This document shows positions 24,232 to 38,985 of a stretch of 64,000 nucleotides of DNA, piece by piece. Origin of the DNA: an uncultured Clostridium sp. (GTDB lineage Bacteria; Bacillota; Clostridia; TANB77; CAG-508); the NCBI GenBank assembly GCA_947364715.1, contig CANAUI010000001.1, positions 1,157 to 65,156 on the forward strand, given 5' to 3'. The translations under genes were made by a program, and so were the position numbers. The number at the start of each line of letters is the position of its first letter. Position 1 is the stretch's first letter. The notes below the pieces were generated by a model, which ran no database searches, had not been told where the DNA came from, and saw only the letters and a program-made list of their open reading frames with translations.

Positions 24232-24879
24232 CTATTTATTAAATAAAAAAATATCGTATGGATAACCTGCCTCAATATATTTTTCTGTTAGTTCCATTTT
24301 ATATTTTTCTAATAATTCTAAATACTTATATTTAAAACAATTTTTACATAGCCATTTAATTCCTTCTTTAGAAATTTTATACTTTCCATTATCAATGAAT
24401 CTATAAGTTTTATTTACTTTCAACATTTTTAGAATTGCTTTTCTTATTGTTTCAGCTTTTCTTTTAAAATACTCATCCAATTCATATACATACATATTAT
24501 CTACAAAAAAATCTTTAGTAGGTACATTTAATAATTCTTCATATAACTGTATTCTAGTTATAAAAAATTCTATATCTGCATCTATTAAAGGTTTTTCTTG
24601 TTGATAATATACATCTAATAACCAGTAAAAGCCTTCTGCTAAAATATAATGTTTTCTACTATCTGGATTTTGACATTTCCATCTACAAGAAGGGTGCTTT
24701 TCATTCATAATATCTATGGCATCAATCAAATCTTTCATATTTATATTTTTATTGGTTCTAGTCTTAATATTTAATAATTTAAAATTTTCTAAAGCTCTAT
24801 GATAAGACATAAAAATTTTCTCTAGTTCTCTTTGTGTATCTGTATTCATAAAATATTCCTCATAATAAATAGATTCCAA
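24232..24879 (-). CDS. hypothetical protein (first gene of the 15-kb operon)
   Basis: 215-aa ORF, tightly packed on the same strand. Confidence 0.5.
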   Translation of the reverse strand: MESIYYEEYFMNTDTQRELEKIFMSYHRALENFKLLNIKTRTNKNINMKDLIDAIDIMNEKHPSCRWKCQNPDSRKHYILAEGFYWLLDVYYQQEKPLIDADIEFFITRIQLYEELLNVPTKDFFVDNMYVYELDEYFKRKAETIRKAILKMLKVNKTYRFIDNGKYKISKEGIKWLCKNCFKYKYLELLEKYKMELTEKYIEAGYPYDIFLFNK

Positions 24880-24893
24880 TTTTAAATTAAATA

Positions 24894-25553
24894 TTATTTT
24901 TCTATATCATATTCTTCTGTTTTTGATTCTTCTGCATGAAGCCATTTATTATAAACAGTATCATAAGTTTGGTCTGTTAATTGGCATAATTTCTCAAAAC
25001 ATCTTTCTCTAACAATAGTATCAGAATCTCCACCAAGTAATTCATATACATCTTTACCTTTACCAGAGTTTAGTAAATTATTTAATTCCAGAAAAGTAGC
25101 AGTATCAGATAATGTTTCTCCTACATCATCACTTGGATATTCTTTAAGATACCATGATTTAATTGATATATCTAATTTCACAATTAGATTCCTTAACTTT
25201 TCATCATTCTCTTTTACTATACGAGTAATCGTATTTTTTACATTTAATTTAGTATTTTCTATATCCTTAGCATTTAATTTATAATTTAAAATAGATTGAT
25301 TGCAGCTATCTAATAATTGATTAAAATGCTTATCTAAAATTGCATCTAAATATTTTAGTCTATTTTCACTCCATTTAGAATAATCTATATATACATTTAT
25401 TCCTGTTGGCTCAGATCCTTTTGACACAAATATTTTAATACCAGACTTATTGTATTGATAATGTAAAGTACATCTCATTTTAATTCCTCCATAATCAAAT
25501 TTTCTTTTGTTGTGCAATATATTTTTTATCACTAACTTTGTTAAGCCATTCAA
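24894..25553 (-). CDS. hypothetical protein; C-terminus ...TEEYDIEK
   Basis: 219-aa ORF. Confidence 0.5.
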   Translation of the reverse strand: MNGLTKLVIKNILHNKRKFDYGGIKMRCTLHYQYNKSGIKIFVSKGSEPTGINVYIDYSKWSENRLKYLDAILDKHFNQLLDSCNQSILNYKLNAKDIENTKLNVKNTITRIVKENDEKLRNLIVKLDISIKSWYLKEYPSDDVGETLSDTATFLELNNLLNSGKGKDVYELLGGDSDTIVRERCFEKLCQLTDQTYDTVYNKWLHAEESKTEEYDIEK

Positions 25554-26052
25554 TAAATTCCTTTTGATTATTATAGCTTAATTTTGTTAATAACCTTTGT
25601 TCATAAATGTTGTACCAGCCTTTATCTGTTTCCTCTTTTGTTGCATTATCTGGTATCATCTCTTTGTGATGTTCAGGACAAAAAAGAGTATTCTCGACCT
25701 CTTTAATTATGTTTTTAAAAAATTGTCTTACACATTTCTTGTATTGGTCCATATCCTCAATTTGTAGTTCTTTAAAACTTACAAATTCATAATTGGCTAC
25801 TTCATGACTATTTAAAGTATTTGTTCTAATATATACTTGTATATTTTCATCAATATATAATCTAAAAAATACTTCAAATTTCTTTATTGTTAAAATATAT
25901 TTTTTATTTTTTTCTAAAGACATTTTGCCTTTATAAATCGCTGTATATTTATTAAAGACCTTTTCAATTTCATCTTTATTAAATCTTTCAATTTGTTTTT
26001 TTATATCCGTATAAACCACCTTCCTTAAATTTAAAAATCTTAATACTAGCAA
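25495..26052 (-). CDS. hypothetical protein
   Basis: 185-aa ORF. Confidence 0.45.
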   Translation of the reverse strand: MLVLRFLNLRKVVYTDIKKQIERFNKDEIEKVFNKYTAIYKGKMSLEKNKKYILTIKKFEVFFRLYIDENIQVYIRTNTLNSHEVANYEFVSFKELQIEDMDQYKKCVRQFFKNIIKEVENTLFCPEHHKEMIPDNATKEETDKGWYNIYEQRLLTKLSYNNQKEFIEWLNKVSDKKYIAQQKKI

Positions 26053-26262
26053 AGCGAAGTATTAAGAGATGAGCAAAATCTCATTTTGCGTCGAATGAGT
26101 CAGGTATTTTTTACCGACTAACATTCGCCAGCATGGTGTTTTGACACCTCTAATGCTGTTTAGGGAAAACTCCCTAAGACCCTTTTAGCCCGCTGGGAGA
26201 AATTTTTTTGAGTTGATTTTTGAAAAAAGTGAAGCAAAAATGCTCCACTTAATCTCAATTTT

Positions 26263-36943: not shown

Positions 36944-37981
36944 TTAATAATCATAGTCCATTTCATCAAATTTAACATCTAAATTTTTCTCAATATTATT
37001 TTTCATTTTTTGAAACATGGTATCATCCTTTTCTATAGCAATACTATTTCTATTTTTGTTATGACAAGCAATTACAAAATTTCCACTACCAGCAAACTGG
37101 TCGAGTAGAGTTTCGTATGGTTTAGAAACGTATTCAATAATTTCTTCTATTAATTCTATTGGCTTTTCAGCCTCCATAATCTTATCTTTCGTATTTTTAG
37201 GTTGATGATTAAATACTGTAGGTAGCATTCCATTGGTTCCCTTCATATATGCAACATCCAGATTATTTTCTTGTAACATATCTCTAATTTCATAAGAGGT
37301 CTTTCCTGTTACTTCTAAATTATTTTCTTTAGCAATAGCAAGATTTTTCTTTGCATCTAATTTTAAATTTCTAGGTTCTCCATTAGAAAATATCATTACA
37401 TCTTCTGAATTTTTTGCTTTTCTTCCAGTATTAGCAACAAAATTTCCTTTTACCCATGCAACTTTTGCAAAATACTTTAAACCATTATCTCGTGCCATCT
37501 TTTTTATTTCATAAAGATATTCATAATTTACTTGTGATTCCTCAGGCAAAAACTCTACTAAAAATGCACCTTCTTTTAAAACTCTTTGTTTCTCTTTAAA
37601 GTCTTTACTTTCATATTTAAAAAGTTCAAATGTAGCAAATTTTCTATTTCCACCACTTAAAGCCTTTTGTAAATCGTAGGGGTGGTCTGTTATAATTCCA
37701 TCAACAGAATGGTCTTTTATCATACTTAAATCTCTACCATCACCATTAATAAGTAAACAAGTGCTTTCTTCATTTTCTAGTTGTTTAGTTACCTTATATA
37801 CACCTCTAGTAATTTTCTTAAATATACCTCTATCAACACCTTCATAAATCCTAGCCCTAATAGATTCATTATTAACATTCATATTTTTTACATTTTTCAC
37901 TAGGTTAGTTGCCTCTTGTATAGAAAACTGTTCTGAATCCATAAAATATTCAAATAAATTCATTTGTATTGTATTATCCAT
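36944..37981 (-). CDS. orphan DNA methyltransferase, beta-class (N6-adenine or N4-cytosine), C-terminal ...DEMDYDY
   Basis: Motif IV SVDGIITDHPY (DPPY variant) precedes motif I LLDQFAGSGNF (FxGxG). No adjacent restriction endonuclease recognised. Confidence 0.7.
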   Translation of the reverse strand: MDNTIQMNLFEYFMDSEQFSIQEATNLVKNVKNMNVNNESIRARIYEGVDRGIFKKITRGVYKVTKQLENEESTCLLINGDGRDLSMIKDHSVDGIITDHPYDLQKALSGGNRKFATFELFKYESKDFKEKQRVLKEGAFLVEFLPEESQVNYEYLYEIKKMARDNGLKYFAKVAWVKGNFVANTGRKAKNSEDVMIFSNGEPRNLKLDAKKNLAIAKENNLEVTGKTSYEIRDMLQENNLDVAYMKGTNGMLPTVFNHQPKNTKDKIMEAEKPIELIEEIIEYVSKPYETLLDQFAGSGNFVIACHNKNRNSIAIEKDDTMFQKMKNNIEKNLDVKFDEMDYDY

Positions 37982-37992
37982 ACATTCACCTT

Positions 37993-38532
37993 CTAATAGT
38001 CATAATCATAATTTTTTGGAATTTTCTTTAATATAGATCTTTTTCTCTCATCCAAATTTATAAAATCCAAATGTTCTTTTAATTCTTTTTGTGGCACAGA
38101 TATTATTTCATCATTTTCCAATTTTCTATATATAAGCCTAGAATTGCTATGCACAAAATCTTTTAATAAGAATTTACCATATCCCTTTTCTATAAAATGT
38201 TTTATAATTTCTTTTGCTTCATCATCATAATTAATTGCATAATATACATCTAAAACAGTTAAATATTCTTCTGATAAAACTGTAATTAAATCGCTTGTTG
38301 CTACTGTGCTTTCTGCAAATTTTCTTTTTTCATTTGGTAAATACCATTCTACTCCTAGTCCTTTTCTATATCCCATAACATCACACTCCTTTTTCAACAA
38401 AACAAAAAAAGAGAATGAGTATATGAAAATTACTATACTCATTCTTATTAACTTACTTTGAAAACAAATTGTTATCATAAGCAAAATTGCAATACCAATA
38501 ATTTTAAATAAAATTTTAAATAAATGTATCAT
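37993..38532 (-). CDS. membrane protein (two N-terminal TM helices) with C-terminal ...KNYDYDY
   Basis: 179-aa ORF. Confidence 0.5.
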   Translation of the reverse strand: MIHLFKILFKIIGIAILLMITICFQSKLIRMSIVIFIYSFSFFVLLKKECDVMGYRKGLGVEWYLPNEKRKFAESTVATSDLITVLSEEYLTVLDVYYAINYDDEAKEIIKHFIEKGYGKFLLKDFVHSNSRLIYRKLENDEIISVPQKELKEHLDFINLDERKRSILKKIPKNYDYDY

Positions 38533-38538
38533 ACTATT

Positions 38539-38985
38539 TTACATGTCCTTTAATGTATTTTTATATTCTGGAAACACTATATTAAATAATTCAGAATATC
38601 TCTTAAAGCCTATTTCATTTAAAGGTCCTTGAAGTGATGTTTCGCTCCAACAAATAAGTTCTTCCTCAATTACATTGTATTCATTAGGAATAAATTTACT
38701 TCCGTTGAAATACGGACAGGAAGGCTTTAACATTTTATCCATTTCAGTTTTTGATTTTATTTGCATAATCATTTTTGTTTTTTTCTCTGCTATCTTATTA
38801 ATCAACTTTTCTACATATCCATGATTTTCGTAACATTCTAAATAATTACTAAGTGTTTTTAATCCGTTAATTCTAAGTGTTTTTATATCATCTGATATTT
38901 TTTCATCAAATAATATTTCAACAAAGGCTTGAATCAAAATAATAGTAGATCCATAATTAGTGATATTTAACATTTTTTCCTCCAT
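38539..38985 (-). CDS. hypothetical protein, first gene after the repeated promoter element
   Basis: 148 aa. GGAGG RBS. Confidence 0.5.
   Translation of the reverse strand: MEEKMLNITNYGSTIILIQAFVEILFDEKISDDIKTLRINGLKTLSNYLECYENHGYVEKLINKIAEKKTKMIMQIKSKTEMDKMLKPSCPYFNGSKFIPNEYNVIEEELICWSETSLQGPLNEIGFKRYSELFNIVFPEYKNTLKDM

Follow-up and report, generated by a model that had tools for sequence, protein, structure and literature searches.

Among the described systems that come closest to the locus analysed here are the following two kinds. In the leading regions of conjugative plasmids, methyltransferases (MTases) and anti-restriction genes are enriched beside the origin of transfer (oriT) (Samuel et al. 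2024, PMC11541004). In polyvalent proteins, which phages and conjugative elements encode, 2–15 domains are joined in one polypeptide, and delivery of this polypeptide together with the DNA has been proposed (Iyer et al. 2017, PMC5512222). We analysed a 64,000-nt stretch of contig CANAUI010000001.1 (GCA_947364715.1) from an uncultured Clostridium sp., referred to below as the window; coordinates are positions in it unless a locus of a relative is named. The open reading frames (ORFs) within 24232–38985 were numbered g1–g18, running from 38973 down to 24232. They belong to an integrative conjugative element (ICE) of low-GC uncultured gut Clostridia, identified as an ICE because an integrase N-terminus, a relaxase and type IV secretion system (T4SS) genes are present in the window. 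Two features stand out: an acidic/aromatic C-terminal tail that extends across a variable island (g1–g15, 26263–38973), and a conserved hairpin element accompanied by the gene g18.

Like the leading-region islands, this block is variable and co-oriented, lies beside a putative oriT that has the relaxase on its other side, contains an orphan MTase as well as many uncharacterised genes, and includes ArdA in relatives. Unlike them, it is part of a Clostridia ICE with a MOBP-type relaxase and a predicted oriT, and its products share a C-terminal tail, a feature that a term search did not find in PMC11541004. Furthermore, general profile searches gave no match to SSB, PsiB or anti-CRISPR (Acr) proteins (PADLOC and dedicated anti-defence hidden Markov model sets were not run). 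Frpo/ssi-type promoters were not found either: an inverted-repeat scan of 21900–41300 returned only short AT-rich repeats in the island, with no Rfam match and no dedicated Frpo model applied. The likeness to polyvalent proteins lies in the domain types (LPD1, zincin peptidase, N6 MTase, RadC, YodL, DpnD/PcfM and ArdA), in the T4SS association and in a proposed role early in invasion. The difference is that the island domains are separate small genes, each product with its own tail, and that a radical SAM enzyme, which has 0 occurrences in PMC5512222, is frequent here.

The tail consists of alternating acidic and aromatic or aliphatic residues at the C-terminus, as in ...DYDY, ...EYDIDI and ...DITDDMF. 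As read from the translations, clear tails were present in the window on g2, g3, g8, g9, g12, g13, g15 and g17, and looser ones on g4, g6 (DITDDMF), g10 (DILDEMYG), g11 and g14. When a strict motif was applied ([DE][YF][DEG][YFIL] within the last 8 residues), it was found in 39 of 137 island ORFs, compared with 1 of 123 other same-strand ORFs of the same loci and 2 of 967 ORFs of control loci, which were the surroundings of distantly related relaxases. Inside proteins, the motif occurred at 0.0055 per window of protein sequence. In the 64,000-nt window alone, a composition criterion gave 7/15 versus 1/45 (Fisher p = 1.2e-4). Positions −2 to −8 were 30–49% acidic against a background of 17%, and 3–7% basic against 14%. 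VirB4, the NlpC/P60 hydrolase, the relaxase and the radical SAM protein were tail-less.

At least 16 unrelated island protein families were tailed. In relatives, tails were observed on ArdA (...EVSEIEI), RadC (...DWDYDYE), YodL/PcfM (...DEPDICDEY), DUF2958 (...DISDELFD) and DUF1281_C (...DITDEMFD), and endings of the DITDDMF type (DIVDDMFD, DITDEMFD) recurred on unrelated families. Orthologues of g3 remained tailed (DEMDYEY, DEIEYE, DELDYEY), members of the g8 family ended in MDYDF, MDYDY or DIFGDY, and the strict motif was present in 9 of 12 members of the g13 family (F5). Homologues of g9 kept a drifting tail down to 47% identity (DYDYDY, EYDYGY, EEIEMEE), and the AlphaFold2 model of g9 shows it as disordered. 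That the tail is a feature of the protein and not of the DNA follows from synonymous variation among its codons and from the lack of any conservation 3′ of the stop codon; the same two observations rejected a DNA repeat or cassette boundary as its source. An artefact of ribosome-binding sites (RBSs) was rejected since these sit downstream of the stop codons, and one of AT-rich composition was rejected by the controls within the same loci. In locus L017, four of five island proteins are tailed, and g9, the MTase and the radical SAM gene are all missing. Neither the g9 zincin nor the radical SAM protein is therefore an obligatory partner of the tail, and the reader of the tail is none of these three. 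Hence the reader does not appear to be encoded in the island, which leaves either the core of the element or the host as its source.

In more distant, higher-G+C hosts, g9 homologues had GQLEFEF-type endings instead of the tail. Among homologues of ~50% identity (P0349–P0356, P0362), the endings were GQLEFEF, GQLEFDL and GQLQFEL and were not common to the neighbouring proteins; we take them to resemble the hexapeptide beta-clamp-binding motif QLxLxL. A different LPD1/YodL-type island surrounds a GQLEF-type homologue in L207:4847-21694 (GC 37%), where 10 of 18 same-strand proteins end in Arg. These terminal codons are CGT (six), AGG (three) and AGA (one); being mostly CGT, they are not an RBS effect. 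The Arg endings hint that C-terminal signatures spanning a whole block may be more widespread among such islands. Tail-like ends were also seen outside the island, on a 303-aa ORF beside the integrase (1062–1973, −; ...KDDYDI), a 139-aa ORF beside the VirD4 fragments (47489–47908, −; ...DSINLEY) and a 142-aa ORF upstream of the primase (51489–51917, −; ...SKEMDYE).

Profile searches against Pfam, PHROG and NCBIfam gave no useful match for 15 of the 18 ORFs. An earlier note on this DNA had recognised three enzymes in the block, and its domain calls for g3, g5 and g9 hold. The g3 product matched PF01555 (1e-21, 78 bits against a cut-off of 26.7) and phrog_67 (2e-29), with motif IV (DHPY, ~residue 99) ahead of motif I (FAGSG, ~residue 296), which confirms the proposed beta-class DNA methyltransferase. 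No nuclease family was detected near g3 in the profile searches, in agreement with its description as an MTase without a cognate endonuclease. The g9 product, at 672 aa the largest of the island, has one catalytic domain; a polyvalent-type LPD domain stands beside the zincin peptidase in it. The HEXXH protein of the note was thus confirmed, with an RBS-based start that shortens it from the 689 aa claimed. PDB sequence searches with the relaxase and a g9 profile gave nothing significant. The g9 gene is split in L212.

The SPL-like radical SAM protein of the note stood in part. The g5 product matched PF04055 (7.5e-14) and phrog_13321 (2.6e-23) and contains the cluster CSHNCSYC (CX3CX2C), but it is not a member of the SPL family (TIGR03886, 21 bits against a cut-off of 437). 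All its NCBIfam matches were far under the cut-offs, including PA0069 (NF033668, 6.5e-22, 78 against 360 bits) and rSAM_mob_pairB (TIGR04470, 2.8e-18, 66 against 410 bits). Judged by these profiles, g5 is only a distant member of the PA0069/radical SAM mobile pair B/SPL superfamily. It is 93% identical to 304-aa relatives, the 87 nt upstream included, and this apparent gap ahead of g5 keeps the reading frame of the longer N-terminus with which the relatives are annotated. The radical SAM protein, which the note had called unexplained in this context, is a recurrent, non-obligatory and tail-less island member. Its ending ...KVA is shared with the relaxase (22118), a 70-aa ORF (40925) and the C-terminal VirD4 fragment (45497), besides g5 itself (35342); radical SAM relatives keep it (...VVA, ...LVA, ...QVA) and most relaxase relatives do not.

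The same interval in relatives, from the T4SS hydrolase gene to the hairpin element, carried ArdA, a RadC-like JAB protein and DpnD/PcfM+YodL as solo genes. Further solo genes in it were DUF2958, DUF1281_C and an NT5C-like protein, besides the MTase and zincin+LPD1. Gene content shifted between elements with relaxases 62–92% identical, and the flanks stayed constant. The slot after the radical SAM gene held ArdA in 6 loci, g6 and g7 in the window and a 136-aa gene in L001. Neither g6 (BLASTP) nor g7 (hhalign against an ArdA-like profile) proved to be an ArdA, and L094:3067-3579 was ruled out as one on comparison. Because the corresponding slot of relatives contains solo genes for polyvalent-protein domains, an establishment or anti-defence reading is supported, and g1–g15 is likely to be the establishment/anti-defence module of the ICE.

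All 18 ORFs are intact, lie on the minus strand and fill 24232–38985, as had been described. The further description as one 18-gene block forming a single operon was not supported on either count. A strong internal promoter-like site (36943–36915) and terminator-like hairpins after g10 and g15 interrupt the proposed operon, and g16–g18 stand past a conserved non-coding element and group with the mobilisation genes. The variable island g1–g15 lies between the T4SS cell-wall hydrolase gene and the hairpin element, and g16–g18, the NikA-like gene and the MOBP-type relaxase gene constitute a second, mobilisation module (Table 1). Gaps of more than 100 nt are confined to g15–g16 and a few other places, and, of 9 aligned relatives, 8 have the hairpin after g15 in the corresponding position. 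The window has a G+C content of ~25%, Firmicutes-type AGGAGG RBSs occur across its genes, and the minus strand holds nearly all genes between ~57 kb and 20.7 kb. The starts of g1, g2, g8, g9 and g14–g18 were re-set from RBS positions; for g2, an AGGAG RBS precedes the ATG at 38376, and 127 aa is also called in L212–L214. Many island products are strongly acidic. All 10 products looked up (7 from the 18-ORF region, the relaxase, the NlpC/P60 hydrolase and the primase) had exact copies in public assemblies, where the contigs reached 573 kb; 9 of these were each identical on 49–517 contigs, and the primase was on only 2. No near-identical plasmid or phage record of the region was found.

Table 1. 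Features of the window and of selected related loci (aa, amino acids; RHH, ribbon-helix-helix).
Feature	Position	Strand	Description
g1	38539..38973	-	144 aa, no acidic tail; no Pfam, PHROG or NCBIfam match; 144 aa in other assemblies
g2	37993..38376	-	127 aa, starts at M53 of a 179-aa ORF; ends ...KNYDYDY
g3	36944..37981	-	beta-class N6/N4 DNA methyltransferase; ends ...DEMDYDY
Promoter-like site TTGATA-17-TG-TATAAT	36915..36943	-	between g3 and g4; 11/12 matches, extended -10; consensus match only
g4	36248..36805	-	185 aa, net charge -18; ends ...DKEIEMN; no family match
g5	35342..36160	-	radical SAM protein; no acidic tail, ends ...IRKVA
g6	34728..35330	-	200 aa, acidic; ends ...DKDITDDMF (second tail type)
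g7	33408..34712	-	434 aa, net charge -34; ends ...EEFYEKAI
g8	32921..33424	-	167 aa; ends ...DNMDYDI
g9	30771..32789	-	672 aa: N-terminal domain, zincin metallopeptidase (HEWGH), LPD1; ends ...ESDYDYDYA
g10	29766..30752	-	328 aa; ends ...PDILDEMYG
Terminator-like hairpin after g10	29730..29756	-	
g11	28743..29702	-	319 aa, net charge -25; ends ...NNYDIADSLSDY; missing from several relatives
g12	28216..28731	-	171 aa; ends ...DNEYDIDI
g13	27300..28196	-	298 aa; ends ...DDEYDLGICG
g14	26641..27288	-	215 aa, net charge -18; ends ...ENDIECEY
g15	26263..26628	-	121 aa; ends ...SEIDYDYE; last island gene
Terminator-like hairpin AAGTGGAGCA-TTTTT-GCTTCACTT + T-run	26223..26250	-	directly 3' of g15; read from sequence
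Multi-hairpin non-coding element P1-P6	26038..26200		~165 nt; best oriT candidate
Invariant CCCTAAACAGC	26155..26165		flanks hairpin P3 of the element
Invariant GCTGGCGAA	26124..26132		flanks hairpin P3 of the element
g16	25495..26019	-	174 aa, basic, no tail; only in close relatives (family D17)
g17	24894..25478	-	194 aa; ends ...TEEYDIEK (tail-like)
g18	24232..24849	-	205 aa; founds a new family of DNA-binding proteins; accompanies the hairpin element throughout
NikA-like RHH relaxosome accessory protein	23763..24176	-	PF21983, 1.9e-8
MOBP-type relaxase	22118..23761	-	547 aa; PF03432, 2.5e-33, 115.6 bits (cut-off 24.6)
Terminator-like hairpin after relaxase gene	22094..22113	-	
Tyrosine integrase N-terminus	1-696	-	~230 residues; runs off the window start; 505 aa in relatives
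Weaker promoter-like site	39011..39039	-	
VirB4 fragments	41185-43354	-	505 + 189 aa; frameshift visible in the sequence
VirD4 fragments	45497-47475	-	148 + about 270-282 + 166 aa; frameshift and in-frame TAG
Tail-bearing ArdA in a relative	L180:923-1609		1.9e-18
Tail-bearing RadC in a relative	L013:1886-2473		1e-26
Tail-bearing DpnD/PcfM + YodL in a relative	L143:2547-3113		

The hairpin element is conserved above its flanking genes in loci whose relaxases are only 62–81% identical, and RNAalifold gave 36 pairs, 14 of them with compensatory changes. A metagenome scan with a pattern built from the two invariant stretches matched at least 120 metagenomic stretches; among the matches listed, ~95 were distinct true copies, and the g18 gene lay directly 3′ of the element in 87 loci. 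The element has no Rfam family, no plasmid match and no copy in IMG/VR. Folding energies of sense and antisense strands and G-T counts showed no consistent strand preference and pointed to neither a nick site nor a transfer polarity. The g18 family comprises more than 1000 unannotated proteins. The AlphaFold2 model of g18 (pLDDT 90.6) matched only winged-helix, MerR, Xis and Par-type DNA-binding sub-domains, and fold searches gave nothing beyond generic helix-turn-helix (HTH) sub-domain matches. Probably, g18 binds the hairpin element.

The element and g18 were found in two settings. In the ICE family, the NikA-like and relaxase genes follow downstream. The commoner setting (L087–L206, e.g. 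L091:566-4423) has no relaxase nearby; a gene pair for a replisome organiser and a DnaC/IstB-like protein lies upstream, and the downstream genes encode Type I restriction-modification (R-M) proteins (HsdM, HsdR), other MTases, a Schlafen/NERD helicase and a serine recombinase. Acidic tails were not seen in these relaxase-less loci. The simplest reading is that the element is an oriT with its recognition protein, common to the ICE and to hitch-hiking islands. The earlier claim that the block adjoins the probable oriT would hold for g15, which is next to the candidate at 26038–26200, but the candidate separates the island from the genes g16 to relaxase.

Within the mobilisation module, the accessory gene is NikA-like (PF21983) rather than MobC-like as had been claimed. 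The relaxase contains the motif HIDRGHIHNH (HxDxxxxHxH) and has 942 homologues; its NCBIfam matches were below the cut-offs (NF041893 TraI_MobP, 7e-19, 68 against 250 bits; NF040665, 2.6e-21). As in R64/RP4-type MOBP relaxosomes, the RHH NikA-like gene is directly upstream of the PF03432 relaxase gene, and a hairpin is followed by a conserved ACACC-AN-GCTGGCGAA, resembling the layout of inverted repeat and nick region. Unlike in R64/RP4, the putative oriT lies ~1.9 kb upstream of nikA with g16–g18 in between, and the constant partner is the winged-helix protein g18, not NikA.

The integrase fragment marks one end of the ICE. Upstream of the island are genes for the NlpC/P60 hydrolase, VirB4, a TrbC-like protein, VirD4, a DnaG-type primase and SpaA/thioester (TED) adhesins. 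Relatives of the ICE occur in metagenome-assembled genomes of uncultured Clostridia from the gut of mouse, rabbit, goat and human. Both VirB4 and VirD4 are broken in the window, and identical fragments were called in three independent metagenome assemblies (L212–L214), indicating that the breaks are real and fixed in the lineage. An alternative genetic code was rejected as their cause, since stop-codon usage is ordinary and the breaks are frameshifts and an in-frame TAG. In relatives, VirB4 has 812 aa. This ICE lineage is probably no longer self-transmissible.

Other features of the window concern the region past the relaxase. A C5 cytosine DNA methyltransferase follows the relaxase gene (20722–22060, −) as two ORFs in different frames (175 and 253–263 aa). 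The split is identical in all relatives seen, and it may represent a natural two-subunit enzyme, not a pseudogene. A full-length group I intron (RF00028, 19914–20171, +; 84.7 bits, E 4e-20) occupies a seemingly non-coding stretch between a serine-recombinase remnant (Zn_ribbon_recom ORF, 19367–19711) and the C5 MTase genes; neither exons nor tRNA genes were detected on its flanks. Cargo at 4183–18482 (+), between the integrase end and the relaxase, includes two ABC/FtsX proteins (731 and 817 aa), another ABC ATPase and a MazE-like antitoxin-domain protein, with an HU-like gene at 18695–18988 (−). This cargo block recurs beside a DUF5906 gene in another element (L210).

Acidic or aromatic C-terminal peptides are read in conjugation and in type IV secretion: the TraD tail is read by TraM, and Glu-rich Dot/Icm signals are read by DotM. 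The island tail resembles such T4SS recognition peptides (Dot/Icm E-block, VirB/D4 Arg-rich, TraD tail) in being a short unstructured C-terminal peptide on unrelated proteins, and it shares acidic residues and a terminal aromatic residue with the TraD tail and the E-block. It differs from the described signals in its pattern of alternating D/E with Y/I/F/M at the extreme C-terminus and in its association with a Gram-positive-type T4SS. Since a short disordered C-terminal peptide is common to many unrelated proteins of one block, the tail can be read as an address signal, and we tentatively propose that it recruits its bearers to the transfer machinery. The tail would be read by a core transfer component, either the coupling protein or the relaxosome. 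Island proteins would be made in the donor, recruited together with the DNA and probably also translocated with it; conjugative T4SSs have been reported to transfer proteins (PMC8406263, PMC11288057). Once delivered, the island proteins could protect the incoming element by methylation or shielding and disable the defences of the recipient ahead of expression of the element's own genes. Each protein would need a tag of its own, since the domains are no longer joined in one polypeptide, and co-transfer would be the dispersed-gene counterpart of delivering one polyvalent protein. Such a model would hold whichever end of the element enters first. For the combination of an establishment/counter-defence module with a transfer-machinery address tag, we put the chance at a little short of even, and that of the tag by itself no higher.

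A stronger form of this proposal takes the tail as a protein-substrate signal of a Gram-positive conjugative T4SS and the island as a secreted effector arsenal, each enzyme being exported on its own tag. We regard this form as rather doubtful; if it is true, other Firmicutes element families use other C-terminal signatures, such as the Arg ends of L207. Several points weigh against the address tag and the module it would serve. The tail flavour (D/E, aromatic/aliphatic) did not differ significantly between elements of the family, so the co-variation expected for an element-encoded receptor was not seen. With the exception of the MTase g3, no window protein matched a known anti-defence family in Pfam, PHROG or NCBIfam, and the disrupted VirB4 and VirD4 may leave the module idle in this lineage. 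A literature search gave no protein-substrate signal for Gram-positive T4SSs and no description of an acidic/aromatic conjugative signal of this kind. Experimental evidence on relaxosome–coupling protein recognition in Gram-positive bacteria is limited, according to PMC12857230, which cites Lu et al. 2008 for TraM in coupling-protein recognition. Finally, a truly leading island that is expressed from the incoming strand would make protein transfer unnecessary.

This last possibility is the core of a different explanation, in which the island is a classical leading region without protein transfer. The element would be the oriT, the window plus strand would be transferred so that g15 to g1 enter first and are transcribed early, and the tails would dock the products onto a host hub (SSB-coated single-stranded DNA or the replication clamp) or onto each other. 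Acidic tails with a hydrophobic end are the means by which SSB recruits its partners, and the island tails, the DITDDMF type most closely, share the acidic run and hydrophobic or aromatic end with the SSB tip (...DDDIPF) and phage SSB tails; the GQLEFEF and GQLEFDL endings of distant g9 homologues presumably resemble the clamp motif QLxLxL. However, the island tails have neither the Pro-Phe of the SSB tip nor the Gln-Leu of the clamp motif, residues often follow the last aromatic one, they are carried by enzymes and DNA mimics instead of an OB-fold protein, and other genes of the same loci are almost never tailed. Also in favour of this explanation are the MTase and ArdA-type genes and the geometry reported in PMC11541004, with the relaxase beyond the putative oriT and the island genes uniformly oriented and transcribed towards it. 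Against it, the element shows no strand preference from which the transferred strand could be determined, and no large Frpo/ssi-like hairpin promoter stood out in the island. In ICEBs1-type Firmicutes ICEs, the transferred strand follows the direction of transcription; with that polarity, the relaxase genes would enter first here and the island last. We consider this explanation, including its role for the tail, unlikely. Of the anti-defence leading region proposed in the earlier note, the anti-defence part is supported by the MTase, the ArdA/RadC/YodL-type genes of relatives and the variability of the block, but its leading position is not established. Its comparison with a dispersed polyvalent-protein-like arsenal is supported by zincin+LPD1 in g9 and by the solo ArdA, RadC, YodL and DUF2958 genes of relatives.

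The remaining explanations leave the transfer machinery out of the role of the tail or question the setting of the block. The tail might be a stability or activity switch, that is, a degron or an auto-inhibitory segment that keeps harmful enzymes short-lived or silent in the donor, as acidic tails regulate T7 gp2.5 and SSB; its disorder at the very C-terminus and its presence on many kinds of enzyme would fit. Known Firmicutes C-terminal degrons are non-polar, not acidic, however, auto-inhibited DNA binding gives no account of the tail on ArdA, a DNA mimic, and the tail is confined to one gene block of the element, so that we find a switch improbable. That the block is an inactive remnant, drifting and vertically inherited in an ICE that has lost self-transfer, is suggested by the VirB4 (505+189 aa) and VirD4 (148+270+166 aa) fragments shared by three assemblies and by the split g9 of L212. 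This is less easily reconciled with the 18 intact ORFs, with the looked-up products that are identical on many contigs, or with the full-length VirB4 of relatives; we think it somewhat unlikely, and it concerns the present activity of one lineage, not the evolved role of the module, and is compatible with the other explanations. The hairpin element might also be no oriT: g18 might act on it as a regulatory leader or as a site of replication or recombination, with the island as ordinary accessory cargo. Its position 3′ of a terminator and ahead of the first mob-operon gene, the resemblance of g18 to transcription-factor and excisionase-type HTH proteins, and the occurrence of the pair in relaxase-less loci, after a replisome-organiser and DnaC-like pair and before Type I R-M genes, would suit such a site. 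The transcribed strand is not enriched in G-U pairs, though, and the invariant single-stranded stretches beside the hairpin recall what we take to be the nick-region layout of MOBP/MOBQ systems. In addition, oriT-only islands are expected hitchers according to a preprint (10.64898/2026.01.13.699239). We judge that this account of the element probably fails, and the arsenal-type gene content is in any case independent of the oriT question.

Taken together, the interpretation as a dispersed, polyvalent-type establishment arsenal was right in kind: an establishment/counter-defence arsenal is well supported, and its leading position is unproven. How conjugative elements of Gram-positive gut bacteria survive in defended recipients is largely unexplained, and most genes of this block have no recognisable family. 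A common tag on at least 16 unrelated families offers a sequence handle for establishment and anti-defence effectors of ICEs in the absence of homology. If the secreted-arsenal reading is true, such effectors could be found by reading C-termini, and the tail allows a direct check of whether Gram-positive T4SSs co-transfer proteins with DNA. The hairpin element and its dedicated DNA-binding protein are common to the ICE family and to relaxase-less islands with R-M and other defence genes; if the element is an oriT, this would point to a mobilisation network in the human gut.

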